This document shows positions 16,953 through 49,136 of a stretch of DNA of 64,000 nucleotides, one piece after another. Each line of letters opens with the position of its first letter. The stretch's first letter is position 1. Origin of the DNA: Actinomyces sp. (GTDB lineage Bacteria; Actinomycetota; Actinomycetes; Actinomycetales; Actinomycetaceae). The stretch is taken from NCBI RefSeq assembly GCF_030524025.1, contig NZ_JAUNHI010000003.1, positions 27,294-91,293 on the forward strand, given 5' to 3'. The translations under genes and the position numbers were made by a program. Under the pieces are notes generated by a model. The model saw nothing but the letters and a program-made list of their open reading frames with translations, had not been told where the DNA came from and made no database searches.

Positions 16953-17344
<392 letters not shown>

Positions 17345-20801: not shown

Positions 20802-20886
20802 TGGTGCCTCCGGCGGGACTCGAACCCGCACGCCCGCAGGCAGCGACTTTTAAGGTCGCGGTGTCTACCCATTCCACCACGGAGGC
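20802..20886 (-). tRNA. tRNA-Leu (anticodon TAA), class II, CCA encoded
   Basis: Cloverleaf: acceptor GCCTCCG/CGGAGGC, anticodon stem GCGAC/GTCGC with loop CTTAAAA, 13-nt variable arm, T-arm GCGGG-TTCGAGT-CCCGC, then ACCA. Confidence 0.85.
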
Positions 20887-23470: not shown

Positions 23471-23561
23471 TACCCCCACTGGGATTCGAACCCAGGACCA
23501 CGTGTTTATCAGACACTGACGAGGTATAAGCTCGCTGCTCTAACCACTGAGCTATGGGGGC
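23471..23561 (-). tRNA. atypical 91-nt tRNA-like gene, candidate anticodon UAU, with a 23-nt variable arm carrying a second anticodon-like loop CUGAUAA
   Basis: Minus-strand sequence GCCCCCA-TA-GCTC-AGTGGTTA-GAGC-A-GCGAG-CTTATAC-CTCGT-CAGTGTCTGATAAACACGTGGTC-CTGGG-TTCGAAT-CCCAG-TGGGGGT-A(CC). The D- and T-arms and acceptor are canonical. The region between them holds two stem-loops where one is expected. Confidence 0.5.
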
Positions 23562-26583: not shown

Positions 26584-26656
26584 TGGACCCGGCCGGACTC
26601 GAACCGACGACCGACGCGGTGTAAACGCGTTGCTCTACCAGCTGAGCTACAGGTCC
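26584..26656 (-). tRNA. tRNA-Val (anticodon TAC)
   Basis: GGACCTG-TA-GCTC-AGCTGGTA-GAGC-A-ACGCG-TTTACAC-CGCGT-CGGTC-GTCGG-TTCGAGT-CCGGC-CGGGTCC-A. CCA is not encoded. Confidence 0.85.
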
Positions 26657-36118: not shown

Positions 36119-36190
<72 letters not shown>

Positions 36191-41591: not shown

Positions 41592-41807
41592 GTCGGCCTT
41601 CCGTCTGAGGTCTGCTCATGCTGGCGCCCGCCGGCGGCCTCGGCCTGGCGGGCGCGCAGCGGGCAGGATCTGCGCACAGTGTCCCATGAGCCGCACCCGG
41701 GGGACGACGGCGCACCCCGGCCACGGCACAAGGTCACACGGGCGCCGCTCCGGGGACCGTAGGCGGCGTCGCCCCGGCACCTACCGACTTAGGCTAGCCT
41801 GACCCGC

Positions 41808-42311
41808 ATGATGCACCGGATCGGAGACCTGCCCTACACCTGGGTGTTCCTGCTGTTCTGGTCGGGAGGGATGATGCGCTCCAACACGATCTACTGGATC
41901 GGCCGGAGCATCACGGCCGGAACCGCCCGCAGCAGGTGGTCCACGATGCTCGACTCCCCCATGTACCTGACCGCCCAGTCCTGGACCGCACGCTGGGGCG
42001 TCCTGGCCGTGCCCCTGTCCTTCCTGACCATCGGCCTCCAGAGCTTCATCCAGCTGTCGGCCGGTGTGGCGCGCATGCCCCTGCGCCGCTACGTCCCCGC
42101 CACCGCCGTGGGCGCCGTCGCCTGGGCCACCATTTACACGACCATCGGCATGGCGGTCCTGGCCGCCTGGTACTCCAGCCCGGCGGGCCGCGTGGTCTCC
42201 GTGGTCCTCGTGGGCGTCGTCATCGGGTCGGTCATCCTCCAGCGCCGTCGCGCCGAGGAGGCCGCCCGCGCCCGAGGGCATGCGAGCCCCGTGGGCTCGG
42301 GCGCCCGGTAG
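41808..42311 (+). CDS. short DedA/VTT-family membrane protein
   Basis: RSNTIYWIGR..AGVARMPLRRYVPATAVGAVAWATIYTTIG resembles the C-terminal half of DedA. 167 aa, shorter than canonical. Confidence 0.55.
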   Translation: MMHRIGDLPYTWVFLLFWSGGMMRSNTIYWIGRSITAGTARSRWSTMLDSPMYLTAQSWTARWGVLAVPLSFLTIGLQSFIQLSAGVARMPLRRYVPATAVGAVAWATIYTTIGMAVLAAWYSSPAGRVVSVVLVGVVIGSVILQRRRAEEAARARGHASPVGSGAR

Positions 42312-42395
42312 CCCGCAGCCCTGCCGAGGGTCCCGGCATACGGACATACGGGGGCCGATTGGGAGCTGGTGTCGGGCCCGGGCTACAGTGGGCCT

Positions 42396-42461
42396 ATGAC
42401 AGCGCGGCACCTCACCTGGTGGTGGCTCCCCTCAGGGCGAGCCACCTCATCGTCGCGCTAG
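42396..42461 (+). CDS. trpL: trp operon leader peptide (MTARHLTWWWLPSGRATSSSR)
   Basis: 21-codon ORF with three consecutive Trp codons TGG TGG TGG, about 95 nt upstream of trpE. The Trp codons lie inside mutually exclusive hairpins. Confidence 0.55.
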   Translation: MTARHLTWWWLPSGRATSSSR

Positions 42462-42516
42462 AACGCACCGGCTCGCTCACCGCGGGCCACCTCGGCACCA
42501 TGCGTGAACGGCCCGC
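42421..42516 (+). promoter_or_regulatory. trp attenuator alternative stem-loops
   Basis: GGTGGCTC (42421-28) pairs with GAGCCACC (42439-46). GCGGGCC (42482-88) pairs with GGCCCGC (42510-16). The GGTGG Trp-codon segment can alternatively pair with the CCACC in 42485-91. Confidence 0.45.
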
Positions 42517-42556
42517 CTGACCACCGATCTGTGGAAGATCTCAGGAAAGAGGCCCC

Positions 42557-44251
42557 ATGGCAACCACGCCACCCGCAGTGCTGACCCGCATTGTGGCCTA
42601 CCACGCCGACGGCGGCGCCCTCCTGCAATCCCTGGCCCGTCAGGGCGTCCTGCGCACCGTCGCCGCTCAGGGCCCCGCCGACCGCCCCGTCGACTGCCTC
42701 CTGCTGGAGAGCGCGGACATCACGACCAAGGCGTCGCGTACAACAATCGCCGTGCTTGAGGCCTCCACCCGCCTGACCTGCCAGGGTCAGGAGGTCCTCC
42801 TCGAGGCTCTGCCCGGGGCCCCGGCCGACGGCCTGGCGGCCCTGGCACGCGTCCGGGAGGCGCTGCCCGAGCACATCGTCGAGGACTCCCCCGGGTGCCT
42901 GCGCCTGGAGATCCCCGCGCCCCCGGAGGACAGCGGCCTGGAGGAGCGCGAACGGCTGAGGTCCGTGTCGACCATCGAGCCGCTGCGGGTGCTGGCGGCC
43001 GCCGACGTCGACCACCCCCACCTGCCCCTGGAGGCGGGCGTCGTCGCCTTCGACTACCTGGCGACCTTCGAGTCCCTGCCCGAGGTCGCCCGGGGCGCCA
43101 ACACCTGCCCCGACTACCTCTTCTACGACGCCCGCATCATCCTCGTGGTCGACCACCCCACCGCCGAGGCGACCCTCGTGGGCGCCTCGGCGGACCCCCA
43201 GGCGCTGGCGGCGCGCATGGAGGAACTGGCGAGCGCCATCGACTCGGCCGAGTCGGCCGACTCGACCCGATCCGTCCCGCCGGTCAGCGGCGATCCGGGC
43301 GATCGGACCGTACGGGCCCTCCCCACGGTCTCGGACGCCGGCTTCGAGGCGGTCGTGGAGCGGATGAAGGAGCACATCGCCGCCGGCGACGTCTACCAGG
43401 TCGTGCCCTCCCGGGGGTTCACCCTGCCCTGCCCCGACGCCCTGGCCGCCTACCACCGGCTGCGCGAGTCCAACCCCAGCCCCTACATGTTCTACCTCGC
43501 CGCCCCCGACTTCGAGCTGTTCGGTGCCTCCCCCGAGTCGGCGCTGCTGCACTCGGCAGTATCGGGCGAGGTCGCCATCCGTCCCATCGCCGGCACCCGA
43601 CCCCGGGGCCTGAGCCCCGACGGCTCGGTCGACCACGAGCGCGACACCCGCCTGGAGCTGGAGCTGCGCACCGACGACAAAGAGGTCGCCGAGCACGTCA
43701 TGCTCGTAGACCTGGCCCGCAACGACGTCGCCCGCGTCAGTGTGCCGGGCAGCCGCCGGGTGGGCGACCTGCTGCGCGTGGACCGCTACAGCCGGGTCAT
43801 GCACCTGGTCTCAGAGGTCTCCGGGCGCCTGGCCCCCGACCTCGACGCGCTCGACGCCTTCCGCGCCTCGATGACGATGGGCACGCTGACCGGCGCCCCC
43901 AAGCTGCGTGCCGCCGAGCTCATCCGCGACGTCGAGGGCGTGCGCCGCGGCTCCTACGGCGGGTCGGTGGGCTACTTCCGGCGCGACGGCGAGCTGGACA
44001 CCTGCATCGTCATCCGCGCGGCCTTCGTGCACGAGGGCACCGCCCTCGTCCAGGCCGGTGCGGGCGTCGTGTCGGACTCGGTACCCGCCGCCGAGGCGGC
44101 CGAGACCATCCACAAGGCCTCGGCGGTCCTCGAGGCCGTGGCGGCGGCCCAGGGCGCCAGGCTCGTCATCGGCCCCCGACCGGGCTGCGAGAACGCCGCC
44201 GGCAAGGACAGCACAGGCAGCACACACAGCACAGACAGCGAGGTGGCCTGA
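42557..44251 (+). CDS. trpE: anthranilate synthase component I
   Basis: 564 aa. Chorismate-binding C-terminal domain GTLTGAPKLRAAELI and GGSVGYF. N-terminal regulatory domain with an LLES motif. Confidence 0.95.
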   Translation: MATTPPAVLTRIVAYHADGGALLQSLARQGVLRTVAAQGPADRPVDCLLLESADITTKASRTTIAVLEASTRLTCQGQEVLLEALPGAPADGLAALARVREALPEHIVEDSPGCLRLEIPAPPEDSGLEERERLRSVSTIEPLRVLAAADVDHPHLPLEAGVVAFDYLATFESLPEVARGANTCPDYLFYDARIILVVDHPTAEATLVGASADPQALAARMEELASAIDSAESADSTRSVPPVSGDPGDRTVRALPTVSDAGFEAVVERMKEHIAAGDVYQVVPSRGFTLPCPDALAAYHRLRESNPSPYMFYLAAPDFELFGASPESALLHSAVSGEVAIRPIAGTRPRGLSPDGSVDHERDTRLELELRTDDKEVAEHVMLVDLARNDVARVSVPGSRRVGDLLRVDRYSRVMHLVSEVSGRLAPDLDALDAFRASMTMGTLTGAPKLRAAELIRDVEGVRRGSYGGSVGYFRRDGELDTCIVIRAAFVHEGTALVQAGAGVVSDSVPAAEAAETIHKASAVLEAVAAAQGARLVIGPRPGCENAAGKDSTGSTHSTDSEVA

Positions 44252-44252
44252 C

Positions 44253-44936
44253 ATGCGCGTCATCCTGCTCGACAACCGCGACTCCTTCGTCTACAACCTC
44301 GTCGACCAGTTCGCCTCCCTGGGCACGGGCATCGAGGTCTACCGCAACACGGTTGCTCCGGACACCGTGCTGACCGCGCTGGAGCCCACCGCCGAGGAGT
44401 CCGCCCAGGGGCTGCGCCCGGTGCTGTGCCTGTCGCCCGGGCCCGGACACCCCCAGGGCTCCGGATGCCTCATGGACCTGGTGGCCGCCGCCCTCGAGCG
44501 CTCGATCCCGACCCTGGGCATCTGCCTGGGCTTCCAGGCCATCGTCGAGGCCTGCGGCGCCAGGGTCGACCGTGTCGGCCCGGTCCACGGACGCTCGGTG
44601 CGCGTCGAGGTGACCGCCGCGGGCCGGACCGACCCCGCCTTCGAGGTGCTGGCCGGCGGGCCCCTGGACGTCGGCCGCTACCACTCCCTGGGCACCCGCG
44701 AGCTGCCCCGTGACCTGGTGCCCCTGGCACACACCCTCGACGGGGTCGTCATGGCCGCCCGTCACCGCAGCGCCCCGGTCGTGGGCCTGCAGTTCCATCC
44801 CGAGTCGGTGCTCACGCCCCAGGGCCCGGGGATCCTCAAGTCCCTGACCGCCGACCTCACCCGGGCCGCAGGCGCGCACTGCGCCCCGACCGGACCCAGC
44901 CCCATGCCGACCACCAGCCCCGGAGGATCACGATGA
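44253..44936 (+). CDS. trpG: anthranilate synthase component II (glutamine amidotransferase)
   Basis: Class I GATase triad (GICLGFQ, HPES). Starts 2 nt after the trpE stop. Confidence 0.9.
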   Translation: MRVILLDNRDSFVYNLVDQFASLGTGIEVYRNTVAPDTVLTALEPTAEESAQGLRPVLCLSPGPGHPQGSGCLMDLVAAALERSIPTLGICLGFQAIVEACGARVDRVGPVHGRSVRVEVTAAGRTDPAFEVLAGGPLDVGRYHSLGTRELPRDLVPLAHTLDGVVMAARHRSAPVVGLQFHPESVLTPQGPGILKSLTADLTRAAGAHCAPTGPSPMPTTSPGGSR

Positions 44937-46054
44937 CCGCCGACTCCACTGAGACCACCACGACCAACGGCACTGGGCAGTCCGGGCAGTCCGGGCGGCC
45001 GGGCCGATCCCCCGCCGTCGCCGACGCCCAGGACGCCCACCGACTCCTGCGCTCGGTCATCCAGGGTAGGCGCCTGACCCAGGAGGAGACCGGCGTCGTC
45101 TTCGCCGCCCTGGGTGCAGGGGACCTGTCCGAGGCGGAGACCGCCGCCCTCCTGGCCGCTCTGCACGCCCGCGGGGAGACTCCCGAGGAGCTGGCCGGCG
45201 CGGCCGGCGCCTTCCGCGCCGCCGCTAGGCCCTTCCCGGAGGTCACCTTCCCCCTGGTCGACGTCGTGGGCACGGGGGGCGACGGCGCCGGGACCATCAA
45301 CATCTCGACCGCCGCCGGGATCGTGGCCGCCTCGATGGGGGTGTCGGTAGCCAAGCACGGCAACCGGGCTGTGTCCTCGCGCACGGGGGCGGCCGACGTC
45401 GTCGCCGCACTGGGCCTGCCCCTGGACCTCGAACCCCAGCGGGCCGTCGAGATCCTCGCCCGCGACCACTTCACCTTCCTGTTCGCCCAGGCCTACCACC
45501 CGGCCATGCGCCACGTCGCGCCGGTGCGCCAGGCGCTCGCCACCCCGACGATCTTCAACGTCCTGGGCCCGCTGCTCAACCCGGCCCACCTGACCTACCA
45601 GCTCATGGGCGTGGCCGACCCCGCCATCCTCGACATGATCGCCGAGACGATGGTGTGCCTGGGCCGCAAGCGCGCGCTCATCGTCCACGGCGCCGGCACC
45701 GACGAGATCGCCGTCCACGGCACGACCCTCGTGCGCGAAGCCACTCCCCGCGGGGTCAAGGCCTACACGGTCGACCCCGAGGACCTGGGCGTGTCCCGCT
45801 ACGACCTGTCCGATCTCGAGGGCGGCGAGCCGCAGGACAACGCCCGCCTCCTGCGCGAGGTGTTCGCCGGAGGGGGCGCCCAGGCGCACCGCGACGCCAT
45901 CGCCGTCAACGCCGGAGCCCTGCTCTACCTGGCCGGTCCCGCCGACGACCTCGCCGACGGCACCCGCATGGCCCTCGAGCAGCTGGCCAGCGGCAGGGTC
46001 GGCGCCCACCTGGAGTCCATGACCACCGCCGCCCAGATCGAGGAGGAGCGATGA
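44933..46054 (+). CDS. trpD: anthranilate phosphoribosyltransferase
   Basis: Motifs [20 protein letters not shown] and [13 protein letters not shown] overlap with trpG. Confidence 0.9.
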
Positions 46055-48282
46055 GCCCCGTCACCAGGCCGCAGGACGGGGCACGCCCCGAGCGCCTGCC
46101 CGTCGAGGCCCGCCTCATCGCCACCGGCACGGTCCTGGACTCCATCGTCGAGGGGCGCCGCGCCCGCCTGCCCGAGCTGCGCGAGCGCTTCGGCCACCTG
46201 CGCGCCGCGGACCTGCCGCGCTCCGAGCGCTCACTGGCCCGGGCCCTGCGCACCCGCACGGGCCCGGGCGCCATCGAGCAGCCGGCGCTCATCATGGAGT
46301 GCAAGGCCGCCTCCCCCTCGCGCGGGACCCTGCGCACCGCCTACGACCCGGCCGAGCTGGCCCGCGCCTACGCGCCCCACGCCGCCGCCGTGTCCGTGCT
46401 CACCGAGCCTGACCGTTTCAACGGCTCCTTCGAGGACCTCGCGGCCGTGCGCGGCGAGGTCGACGTGCCCGTGCTGTGCAAGGACTTCATCGTCGATGAG
46501 GTCCAGGTGCTGGCCGCCCGCTCGCTGGGCGCCGACGCGATCCTGCTCATGCTCTCGGTCGTGCCCGACGACGTCTACCGCGAGCTGGCCGGGCTGGCCG
46601 AGTCCCTGGGCATGGACGTGCTCACCGAGGTGTCCACGCGCGAGGAGATGCGCCGCGCCGCCGCCCTGGGGGCACGGGTCATCGGCATCAACAACCGGGA
46701 CCTGCGCACCCTGGCCACCGACATCGCTCGCACCGAGGAGCTCGCACCCCTCGCACCGGCCGGTGTCGTGCTCGTCGGCGAGTCCGGTGTCCACGAGCCC
46801 CAGGACGTGCGCCGCCTGGCCGGGCTCGTCGATGCCCTGCTCGTGGGCTCGGCCCTGTCGAGCGCCCCCGACCCGGGCGCCGTCGCGCAGGCCCTGGCCG
46901 CGGCCGTCGAGCCCCGCCGCGAGCGGGGGGAGGCCGGGCGGGCCCACGGCGACCACCACCACCCGCGTCTGAGCGCCTACTACGGCCAGTACGGGGGCCA
47001 GTACGTCCCCGAGCTGCTCATCCCCGCCCTCGACCAGCTCGAGGACGCCTTCATCGAGGCCCAGGCCGACCCGTCCTTCGCCGCCGAGCTCAACGAGCTG
47101 CTCCACCGGTACCTGGGGCGGCCCACGCCGGTCACCGAGCTGCGCAACCTCCCCCGGGAGGGCAATGCCCGCATCTTCCTCAAGCGCGAGGATCTCGTCC
47201 ACGGCGGGGCCCACAAGGGCAACCAGGTCCTGGGACAGGCCCTCCTGGCCCGCCGCATGGGCAAGTCCCGGATCATCGCCGAGACCGGCGCCGGGCAGCA
47301 CGGCACGGCCACCGCCATGGTCTGCGCCCTGCTGGGGCTGGAGTGCACGATCTACATGGGCGCCACCGACGTCGTGCGGCAGGCCTCCAACGTCGAGCGC
47401 ATGGAGCTGATGGGGGCACGGGTCCTCCCCGTGGCCTCGGGGGCCGGCACCCTCAAGGACGCCGTCAACGAGGCCCTGCGGGACTGGTCGGCCTCCTTCC
47501 ACGACACCCACTACCTCCTGGGCACGGCCGCCGGCGCCCACCCCTTCCCCACCATCGTCCACGAGTACCACCGCTGCATCTCCGTGGAGGCGCGCGCCCA
47601 GATCCTTGAGATGACCGGACGCCTGCCTGACGAGGTCATCGCCTGCGTGGGCGGGGGCTCCAACGCCATCGGCATGTTCTCCGAGTTCGTCGCCGACCAG
47701 GGCGTGGGCCTCATCGGGGTCGAGCCGGCCGGCGAGGGCCTGGGCACCGCGCGCCACGGCGCCCCGATCAACCAGGGCACGGTCGGCATTCTCCACGGGG
47801 CCCGCAGTTATCTCATGCGCACCCCCGACGGCCAGGTCGAGGAGTCCTTCTCCGTCTCGGCGGGACTGGACTATCCCGGTGTGGGGCCCGAGCACGCCTG
47901 GCTGGCCGACACCGGCCGGGCCCGCTATGTCGGCGTCACCGACGCCCAGGCCCTCGAGGCCTTCGAGCTGCTGTCGCGGTGGGAGGGCATCGTCCCCGCC
48001 CTGGAGTCGGCCCACGCCCTGGCCCAGGCCCTCGCCATCGCCCGGCGAACCCCCGACCACCTCCCGGCACCGCACCTGCTCGTGTGCCTGTCGGGCCGCG
48101 GCGACAAGGACCTCGACCAGGTCCGGGCGCTGCGCGGGGGGAGCTTCAGCTCCGACTCCGCCGTCGCCCGCGCGGCCGTCATGGTCGAACAGATGGGCAA
48201 ACGCACGGAGTACCAGTCGATGACCCAGTCGATGACCCAGCCCGTGCAGCAGCCCGTGACCGGCGAGGAGCCCCGAGGATGA
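46051..48282 (+). CDS. trpCB: fused indole-3-glycerol-phosphate synthase / tryptophan synthase beta chain
   Basis: Single 743-codon frame. The N-terminal 280 aa are IGPS ([28 protein letters not shown]). The C-terminal 440 aa are PLP-dependent TrpB ([41 protein letters not shown]). No stop or start codon separates them. ATGA overlap with trpD. Confidence 0.85.
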
Positions 48283-49136
48283 CCCGTTACACCGCGATGT
48301 TCGACCGCCTGTCCCGCGACGGGCAGGGCGCCTTCGTCCCCTTCGTCATGGTCGGCGACCCGACCGCGGCCCTGTCGGAGGATGTCATCGAGGCGCTCAT
48401 CGAGGCCGGTGCCGACGCCCTCGAGCTCGGCGTGCCCTTCTCCGACCCGGTCGCCGACGGGCCGACCATCCAGCGCGCCCACATCCGCGCCCTGGAGGCC
48501 GGCTCGGACTTCGAGGCCTGCCTGCAGGTCGTGGGCCGTGTCCGGGGGCGCCACCCCGACCTGCCCATCGGCATGCTCATCTACGGCAACGTGCCCTTCG
48601 CCCGCGGCCTGGAGGCCTTCTACGCCGACTGCGCCGCCGCGGGCGTCGACTCGGTGCTCGTCCCCGACGTCCCGGTGCGCGAGTCCGCGCCCTTCTCCGC
48701 GGCGGCCGCGGCGGCCGGCGTCGACGCGGTCTACATCGCACCGCCGTCGTCATCGGCCCAGACCCTCGACGCGGTGGCCGAGGCCTCCCGGGGCTATGTC
48801 TACGCCGTCTCGCGGGTCGGTGTCACGGGCGCCGAGCACGCCTCGTCGACGGCCGGCCTGGCCGAGTCAGTGGCGCGCCTGCGGGCCGACGCCGCCGCGC
48901 CGGTCATGCTGGGCTTCGGGATCTCCCGGCCCGAGCAGGTTGCCGAGGCCATCGCCGCCGGGGCCGACGGCGCCATCTCCGGCTCGGCGACCGTGGCCAT
49001 CATCGAGCGCCACGCCCCGGCGCTCCTGTCGACGGCGCAGGGCGGGGACGACCGAGCCGCCGCCGTGGCGGCCATGGTCGATGAGCTCACGGAGTTCGTC
49101 GCAGCGATGAAGGCAGCGACCCTGCCGACCCCCTGA
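48279..49136 (+). CDS. trpA: tryptophan synthase alpha chain
   Basis: ATGA overlap with the trpB stop. [28 protein letters not shown] and GFGIS motifs. Confidence 0.9.

Follow-up and report, generated by a model that had tools for sequence, protein, structure and literature searches.

A tryptophan leader-peptide element upstream of the trp operon of Actinomyces: a probable attenuator diverged from gammaproteobacterial trpL

The leader open reading frame and its conservation

The window analyzed here is a stretch of 64,000 nucleotides (nt) of Actinomyces sp. (contig NZ_JAUNHI010000003.1, positions 27,294 to 91,293), in which a trp operon of the order trpE-G-D-(C·B)-A, with trpE as its first gene and its end at 49136, is preceded directly and on the same strand by a short open reading frame (ORF) carrying three tandem tryptophan codons (Table 1). 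The original prediction had reported a 21-codon ORF with a Trp-Trp-Trp (WWW) triplet ending about 95 nt before trpE, and this is what the coordinates give, the gap to the trpE start at 42557 being 95 nt. The codons are ATG ACA GCG CGG CAC CTC ACC TGG TGG TGG CTC CCC TCA GGG CGA GCC ACC TCA TCG TCG CGC TAG. The minimum free energy of the 171-nt leader is −78.6 kcal/mol, compared with −66.0 ± 4.5 kcal/mol for dinucleotide shuffles (z −2.79), none of 200 such shuffles being as stable. The motif TGGTGGTGG taken alone has 2 matches in the window for 0.99 expected and is not enriched. We consider the leader to be more than a product of chance because its fold surpasses the shuffles and because the ORF and the RNA segments described below are conserved 5′ of trpE, the comparison with relatives being decisive.

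Upstream DNA of trpE was retrieved through TrpE proteins, with no DNA pattern imposed, at the loci L001, L081-L084 and L205-L208. A short in-frame ORF with WWW was found upstream of trpE in every one of these relatives, and its three Trp codons are invariant. The leader reads MTARRITWWWLPSGRATSSSR in A. howellii (L081), MTTRHTTWWWLPLRRAAILTR in A. oris (L084), MTAFRTRQWWWLPNGRATNAA in A. ruminicola (L083), MTAFRTSQWWWLPNGRATHAA in A. succiniciruminis (L082) and MKNMFGTSASQMWWWLP in Trueperella pyogenes (L001), ends in QMWWWLS in a second Trueperella (L205) and reads MIRAWWWLP in a third, oral lineage of the Actinomycetaceae (L206-L208), each followed by a stop codon; the peptide pattern in relatives is M-T-[AT]-[FR]-R-x-x-[QT]-WWWLP... 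A metagenome scan was also carried out using the 19-base pattern TGGTGGTGGCTCCCCNNNNGGCG, which fixes much of segments 1 and A of the RNA, and yielded 120 loci, 99 of them with the leader; in 78 of these 99 the N-terminus of trpE lies 125-235 nt downstream. Unrelated matches, lacking segments A, B or C, account for 21 of the 120 loci (L098, L103, L104, L107-L110, L114, L120, L121, L128 and others), which is the chance-match rate of the pattern in the collection. In one leader variant the ORF carries three additional nucleotides that keep the frame (RRAAIILTR as against RRAAILTR), as a translated frame predicts. The leader stops right after WWWLP in Trueperella, in the L206 lineage and in two Actinomyces lineages (L162 and L171). 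Among the window, A. howellii and the A. oris group, whose TrpE proteins are ~75-83% identical, the −10 box, the start codon, WWWLP, segments A, B, C and D and the Shine-Dalgarno (SD) block are kept while the sequence between these blocks and 5′ of the −10 box diverges. Conservation in relatives, on which the original prediction had been made to depend, was thus observed, the start codon, WWWLP and the segments being retained in Actinomyces, Trueperella and the third oral lineage of the Actinomycetaceae. A separate observation concerns the start of trpE in L091, L179 and L187, where tandem GCCTAC(T/A)G(G/A)G repeats form a variable tract at the TrpE N-terminus of some Actinomyces.

We also examined the DNA just upstream of the leader start codons. 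Of 60 distinct upstream regions, 56 have the hexamer TANNNT exactly 6 or 7 nt 5′ of an in-frame start codon (ATG or GTG), which itself sits 7-11 codons 5′ of WWW. In the hexamer, T, A and T are constant and the middle bases vary (TACAGT, TAGAGT, TACCCT, TAGGCT, TAACCT, TAGTAT and others). TAnnnT is the −10 motif of sigma-A, present 5′ of 97% of the start sites of C. glutamicum (PMC3890552), and leaderless leader peptides have been documented in Streptomyces lividans (PMC8079986). The closeness of this conserved box to the start codon makes a leaderless leader mRNA probable, with a predicted start site near 42395-42396, at or next to the ATG. The spacing to the ATG at 42396 also argues against a longer, GTG-started frame at 42369. 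Further upstream, GATTGGGAGCT at the −35 region is common to the window and A. howellii (L081). A simple promoter and terminator scan around the leader found nothing.

Table 1. Coordinates in the window of the leader elements, the trp genes and other features
Feature	Coordinates	Strand	Remarks
Possible −35 hexamer TTGGGA	42359..42364	+	19 nt 5′ of the −10 box; tentative, read from the sequence
−10-like hexamer TACAGT	42384..42389	+	6 nt 5′ of the leader ATG
Leader ORF (trpL-like), MTARHLTWWWLPSGRATSSSR	42396..42461	+	21 sense codons; ATG 42396-42398, TAG 42459-42461
TGG TGG TGG, three tandem Trp codons	42417..42425	+	part of the leader ORF
Segment 1, GGTGGCTCCCC	42421..42431	+	overlaps the Trp codons; pairs with A
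Segment A, GGCGAGCCACC	42436..42446	+	pairs with segment 1 or B
Segment B, GGCTCGC	42470..42476	+	pairs with A (antiterminator) or C (terminator homolog)
Segment C, GCGGGCC	42482..42488	+	pairs with B or D; followed by ACCTCGGC, no U-run
Segment D, GGCCCGCC	42510..42517	+	fifth segment; pairs with C, less well with A; conserved island in alignment A1
CCTGA...TCAGG hairpin and GGCC	42516..42556	+	GGCC at 42551-42554 can pair with the GGCC of D
SD of trpE, GGAAAGAGG	42544-42552	+	within the D-to-ATG hairpin
trpE, anthranilate synthase I, proteobacterial type	42557..44251	+	564 amino acids; Pfam Chorismate_bind 1.4e-77
trpG	44253-44936		second gene of the operon (Pfam/NCBIfam)
trpD	44933-46054		third gene of the operon (Pfam/NCBIfam)
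trpC·B	46051-48282	+	one ORF with indole-glycerol-phosphate synthase and tryptophan synthase beta domains
trpA	48279-49136		last gene of the operon (Pfam/NCBIfam)
DedA/VTT-domain protein gene	41808-42311		5′ neighbor of the leader
RNase P RNA, bacterial class A	16958-17337	-	Rfam, 282.9 bits
Four tRNA genes	20805-20886, 23471-23561, 26584-26656, 36119-36190 (-)		Rfam

Alternative helices and the terminator homolog

Two alignments, A1 with 48 distinct leaders and A2 with a more diverse set of 18, indicate a conserved chain of pairings that runs from segment 1, at the Trp codons, to A, from A to B, from B to C and from C to D. In the window, GGTGGCTCCCC and GGCGAGCCACC make an inverted repeat of 11 nt (91%) whose hairpin, 1:A, has a predicted energy of −20.7 kcal/mol, GCGAGCC (42437-43) is the inverted repeat of GGCTCGC (42470-76) in A:B, and the B:C hairpin (GGCUCGC/GCGGGCC) is predicted at −13.3 kcal/mol. 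Across relatives, pairing amounts to 97.5-98.4% for 1:A, 93.8-94.5% for A:B and 93.6-96.2% for B:C, compared with 26-62% in a control in which the 3′ partner was slid by 1-3 columns. Since they share segments, 1:A, A:B and B:C are overlapping, mutually exclusive hairpins of the 1:2, 2:3 and 3:4 kind. One pair of B:C (alignment columns 85-105) is compensatory, being GC in 27 rows (window type) and AU in 21 rows (A. ruminicola type).

All three pairings named in the original prediction exist in the window (GGTGGCTCCCC with GGCGAGCCACC; GGTGGC 42421-26 with GCCACC 42486-91; GCGGGCC 42482-88 with GGCCCGC 42510-16), and that reading proves right in kind and wrong in anatomy. The Trp segment does pair with the segment just downstream, but its other proposed partner, GGCCACC, is limited to the window and A. 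howellii; the conserved alternative is the pairing of A with GGCTCGC, and A:B and B:C had both been overlooked. The GCGGGCC/GGCCCGC stem is not the terminator; it is C:D, in which C pairs with a fifth segment. A terminator role for C:D was considered and rejected: no U-run follows it, its regulatory sign would be wrong, and the U-run of relatives lies inside its loop. As for ribosome-mediated attenuation of the classic type, a Trp leader peptide and alternative hairpins before trpE are present; the U-run is missing and the mRNA is probably leaderless.

The terminator homolog is B:C, an assignment that follows from the compensatory GC/AU change and from the U-run found after B:C in relatives. 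Among the lower-GC relatives, B:C makes a textbook intrinsic terminator with a U-run, as in T. pyogenes (AAGGCUCGCUC-AUGUG-GCGGGCCUUUUUCGUU), in L206 (AAGGCUCGCC-CUCGC-GGCGAGCCUUUUACGUU) and in L205, where it ends in GGCGGGCCUUUUUCUUUG. The number of U in the 8 nt 3′ of B:C drops as GC climbs across lineages, from 7 in L205, 5 in T. pyogenes and 4 in the L206 lineage to 2-4 in the A. ruminicola type, 3 in L096 and 0-1 in the window, A. howellii and the A. oris group, so that a GC stem followed by a U-run is present in relatives and absent from the window. Hairpin-plus-U sites are found at chance frequency in positions 1-60000 of the window (10 found for ~9 expected; 3, 4 and 3 as against 2.9, 3.5 and 2.7 in shuffled sequence), and U-less stems therefore fit the style of this genome. 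Of 535 structured transcript 3′ ends in the GC-rich Streptomyces clavuligerus, 353 have no U-rich tract, and these allow more read-through (PMC8269248). At the end of the trp operon, after 49136, a CCGGAGG...CCTCCGG stem seen by eye is followed by CGTGTGATGC.

The position of the leader ORF relative to these helices fits a ribosome that senses tryptophan. A ribosome covers its mRNA from P-12 to P+15. With the first, second or third UGG in the ribosomal A site, the 3′ edge of the footprint falls at ~42429, 42432 or 42435, and segment A starts at 42436; a stalled ribosome covers segment 1 and not A, as coordinates and masked folds agree. At the stop codon, the ribosome lies at ~42444-42471, between A and B. 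In folds without a ribosome, the probability of 1:A is 1.00; when the stalled footprint is masked and the RNA extends to D, the probabilities of A:B and C:D are both at least 0.99.

These observations suggest the following mechanism. On a leaderless mRNA begun at or next to the leader ATG, scarcity of charged tRNA-Trp would stall the ribosome at the UGG codons (42417-42425), so that segment 1 is covered and A is free. Free A would capture B as it emerges and leave C unpaired, to be taken later by D, and this ON fold (A:B + C:D) would allow read-through. With ample Trp, the ribosome would pass A and reach the stop codon at 42459, 1:A would re-form behind it and B would pair with C, giving the OFF fold (1:A + B:C). 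In the window lineage, the OFF fold might act by U-less or factor-assisted premature 3′-end formation at B:C and also through freed D and the spacer, which may mask the trpE ribosome-binding site (RBS) in read-through transcripts. We estimate at about 0.78 the probability that the element is a Trp-sensing leader-peptide attenuator, a diverged homolog of gammaproteobacterial trpL, that controls trpE-G-D-(C·B)-A in Actinomyces. Sensing through ribosome stalling is well supported by the sequence and by the comparison of leaders, the stalling itself being what the geometry would predict; the output step (U-less termination, RBS masking or Rho) and the start site are what we infer. On this picture the leader is a genuine tryptophan sensor of a mostly ordinary sort, set apart by the absence of a U-run 3′ of its stop hairpin and by a fifth segment added to the pairing chain.

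Several results weigh against this reading. Neither B:C (1 U in 8 nt) nor C:D is followed by a U-run in the window, terminator-like sites were not found in 41800-43000, and no Rfam family, T-box and Trp_leader included, matches the window leader at E up to 10 over 42250-42650. Covariation is thin, with one-sided (wobble) changes only in A:B and 1:A, and much of segments 1 and A was fixed beforehand by the search pattern, with the TrpE-seeded loci, which are independent of it, in agreement. With RNA transcribed only to C and the stalled mask on, B:C wins at equilibrium (P(A:B) 0.02-0.10), which implies either a kinetic trap that holds A:B, as is assumed in classical attenuation, or a decision made after D. 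A:B + C:D and A:D + B:C are nearly iso-energetic, within ~4 kcal/mol in seven lineages, and the winner varies by lineage; equilibrium folding does not decide between these two states. RBS masking, moreover, is not seen in leaders of the A. ruminicola type (type II), and in full-length partition-function folds, whether unconstrained, ribosome-masked or with forced helices, SD accessibility shows no clear difference between the states. Another pairing seen in the minimum free energy fold of the window, between B and an extended D region, was discarded, as it is not kept by eye in L096 or L085.

The fifth segment and the output of the leader

Segment A resembles C and B resembles D, and A:B, B:C, C:D and A:D each have at least 7 of 8 pairs in eight sequence variants. 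A compensatory change in C:D distinguishes L206, with GGCGAGCC as C and GGCUCGCC as D, from other leaders (GGCGGGCC and GGCCCGCC), and one in A:D is seen in L205, with GGUGGGCC as A and GGCCCACC as D. As D is transcribed after the U-run of relatives, it can have no influence on intrinsic termination at B:C; its conservation in spite of this suggests a role at a later step. In the window lineage, the GGCC of D and CCUGA may pair with UCAGG...GGCC, flanking the SD, and the D-to-ATG hairpin is predicted at −17.5 kcal/mol in the window compared with ~−12 kcal/mol in A. howellii and A. oris. An 11-nt insertion between D and the SD, present in the window as compared with A. howellii, forms a 5-bp GATCT/AGATC stem (42526-42540) and strengthens the D-to-SD hairpin. 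In lower-GC lineages, a U-rich spacer, rather than the GGCC of D, pairs with the purine-rich SD. The fifth segment of type II leaders, CCTGGTGGC, pairs with the apex of B:C, with compensatory changes read from the alignment; an anti-RBS role for it was considered and is not supported by the RBS-opening folds.

Masking of the RBS was modeled on RNA from B to the AUG of trpE, as the free-energy cost of opening the 17 nt ending at this AUG, the C:D state being represented by masking B. In seven type I representatives, opening costs 5.2-11.7 kcal/mol in the B:C state and 0.1-3.3 kcal/mol in the C:D state; the corresponding values are 7.9-9.7 (window 9.7) and 2.9-5.2 kcal/mol in the window lineage. 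This difference is in part nearly automatic, because the C:D state leaves the SD fewer partners. The cost in the B:C state exceeds that of dinucleotide-shuffled spacers in 7 of 7 (z 0.85-3.6, fraction at least as high 0.000-0.167), and D:SD pairing shows no covariation among leaders. We regard RBS masking as a plausible, if tentative, second layer and not as a finding. A further, rather speculative extension is that D was added in the Actinomycetaceae to the four segments of the classical trp attenuator, and that attenuation in the U-less, high-GC Actinomyces would work as a five-segment chain in which the choice would be made after D, between A:B + C:D with the RBS open and 1:A + B:C with the RBS masked by D and the spacer, or with access for Rho, instead of by termination at B:C; such a chain would be a ribosome-sensed counterpart of the dual control exerted by TRAP in Bacillus.

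The same data bear on two other possible outputs. A purely translational attenuator would keep Trp stalling, let polymerase always read through and have as its sole output the masking of the trpE RBS in 1:A + B:C, as opposed to D held by C; we hold this to be possible but doubtful. In its favor, the window, A. howellii and A. oris have no U-run after B:C, and it agrees with the conservation of D as an island with a compensatory C:D change, with an RBS that is dearer to open in the B:C than in the C:D state in the window lineage, above shuffled spacers, and with a stall-dependent difference in fold that arises only after D has been transcribed. Relatives with the same D, however, also have clean U-run terminators, so that D is no general substitute for termination, and for L081, the relative closest to the window, the margin over shuffles is of modest significance (0.14 of them at least as high); the similar SD accessibility of both states in full-length ensembles and the lack of covariation in D:SD tell against it as well. 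Rho-dependent control is a less likely output. The C-rich untranslated spacer, free in the OFF fold, would load Rho and cause termination before or early in trpE, C:D hiding the site in the ON fold. Such an output would suit a 60-kb stretch where hairpin-plus-U terminators stay at chance level (10 versus ~9), and has precedents in that most structured 3′ ends of GC-rich Streptomyces have no U-rich tract and may be Rho-related (PMC8269248) and in that Rho has been proposed for actinobacterial leader peptides without terminators (PMC1262725). The spacer, however, is just 95 nt long and strongly structured, no conserved rut-like feature was found, though no search aimed at one was made, and simple uncoupling by stalling would raise Rho action, which is the wrong sign unless structure masks the site.

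Two accounts deny the leader any present function. That it is a decaying relic, inherited with the operon and deprived of its U-run and of regulation in a high-GC lineage, strikes us as improbable: loss of the U-run and the lack of an Rfam match would be expected of a relic, but the start codon, the −10 box, WWWLP, segments A to D and the SD block are kept while flanking sequence diverges. We give almost no credence to the idea of a chance small ORF in GC-rich intergenic DNA, with the operon under the control of a protein or a T-box. High-GC DNA is rich in spurious ORFs and TGGTGGTGG is not enriched in the window; the comparison nevertheless already contradicts it, the ORF, its frame and its Trp codons being kept across genera at a fixed distance from trpE, and neither a T-box nor any other Rfam family is present at the leader.

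Kinship and comparison with known systems

TrpE of the window scores above the cutoffs of two NCBIfam equivalogs (TIGR00565 trpE_proteo, 520 bits for a cutoff of 494.65; NF010079, 600 for a cutoff of 471). Outside the Actinomycetaceae, the TrpE proteins closest to it come from gammaproteobacteria (Motilimonas, Vibrio, Glaciecola, Alteromonas and others, 42-51% identity) and not from other Actinobacteria. Regions upstream of gammaproteobacterial trpE have leaders with WWW or WW and the same layout, such as ...AAWWWHSLT in Alteromonas and ...NWWWHIPNGRV in Rheinheimera, each before a stop codon, and their DNA reads TGGTGGTGGCAC, then CGGGCG, then GGCCCG-loop-CGGGCC-T7-8; segment D is absent from the gammaproteobacterial leaders examined. 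A covariance model named R1, built from 18 Actinomycetaceae leaders and only roughly calibrated, gives 72 bits to the window and finds gammaproteobacterial leaders on the correct strand just 5′ of trpE at ten loci (L002, L003, L005, L006, L008-L012 and L018; E 2e-5 to 0.01), with weaker matches at L017 (E 0.085) and L004 (E 0.11). In Pseudoalteromonas L008, trpE is preceded by a tandem pair of leader ORFs with WWW, MTNTQKTTMTLVWWWHS and MLNNAMTTSWWWCP, both matched by R1 (2622-2714 and 2769-2862 of that locus). With RF00513, the Trp_leader family of Rfam (gathering score 41 bits), L206 obtains 24.9 bits (E 0.004), T. pyogenes L001 17 bits and Alteromonas L006 32.9 bits; relatives thus stay below the gathering score and the window has no match at E up to 10. 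Because TrpE is of the proteobacterial type and R1 finds gammaproteobacterial trp leaders, the window element looks like a diverged homolog of the classical trpL attenuator, and the leader was probably acquired laterally together with a proteobacterial-type trp operon. According to Xie, Jensen and co-workers, Corynebacterium reportedly obtained its whole-pathway trp operon by lateral transfer. 

The rest of the operon and of the window calls for brief comment. Positions 46051-48282 form an uninterrupted ORF, an apparent TrpC-TrpB fusion, for which the best NCBIfam model is that of bifunctional IGPS/TrpB (NF010375, 613 bits, under its cutoff of 1386; IGPS, indole-glycerol-phosphate synthase). 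No phosphoribosylanthranilate (PRA) isomerase (trpF) domain was seen in the operon in the Pfam and NCBIfam results. At gathering score, Rfam gave nothing relevant to the leader and no T-box in the whole window, its sole matches being RNase P RNA and four tRNA genes.

The leader reveals the probable switch for tryptophan synthesis in Actinomyces and in Trueperella, which are oral, ruminal and veterinary bacteria. The homologous series, from canonical leaders with hairpin and U-run to U-less ones, offers a test bed for attenuation in high-GC Actinobacteria, where U-tract terminators are scarce. A fifth-segment layer that may act on trpE translation is a further suggestion of these results, which also lend support to the idea that a proteobacterial-type trp operon entered the Actinomycetaceae along with its leader. 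Should the basic reading alone hold, the gain is one of routine annotation, an unannotated 21-codon gene and a regulatory RNA.

Among known systems, the closest is gammaproteobacterial trpL (E. coli type, RF00513), in which tandem Trp codons likewise lie in a short ORF immediately 5′ of a proteobacterial-type trpE and exclusive 1:2, 2:3 and 3:4 hairpins are built on a GGGC/GCCC-type triple. Leaders of the Alteromonadales type resemble it further in encoding ...WWWH... from TGGTGGTGGCAC, followed by CGGGCG. Unlike trpL, the window leader lacks a U-run 3′ of the 3:4 homolog and a match to RF00513, and has a fifth segment D and, probably, a leaderless mRNA; its ORF extends across segment 2, with the stop 8 nt 5′ of segment 3. 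Trueperella, L206, L162 and L171 are like E. coli in this last respect, as their ORF ends after WWWLP and the terminating ribosome sits on A. We place the window element as a variant and not as a canonical member of trpL because the U-run of the terminator is missing and the extra segment D is present. The idea of a second layer recalls trpE of B. subtilis, where TRAP governs both transcription attenuation and an SD-sequestering hairpin. The two are alike in idea, in that the OFF fold of the leader would both terminate transcription and hide the trpE SD in read-through transcripts; they differ in that the sensor is the TRAP protein and not the translating ribosome, they have no sequence relation, and RBS masking is here a folding prediction.

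Full-text literature searches found no paper describing a trp leader of Actinomyces. C. glutamicum trpL is treated as a known attenuator (PMC11802643, PMC3890552), and a conserved complementary triple, gGCC-rGCy-GGCC, was described for the trp attenuators of Corynebacterium and Streptomyces by Seliverstov et al. (2005, PMC1262725), whose genome set included A. naeslundii and who reported trp attenuators only for those two genera. The leader described here has the same kind of triple (GAGCC / GGCUC / GGGCC). The terminators of Corynebacterium and Streptomyces, compared here by their published description, were all reported with poly-U tracts (PMC1262725), unlike that of the window. In this respect the element comes closer to the leuL1, metL and thrL leaders of S. 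lividans (PMC8079986), which have a leaderless ORF and downstream hairpins with no uridine-rich tract; these leaders serve other amino acids and genes, with no homology implied, and differ in that sister lineages of the Actinomyces leader keep their terminators.

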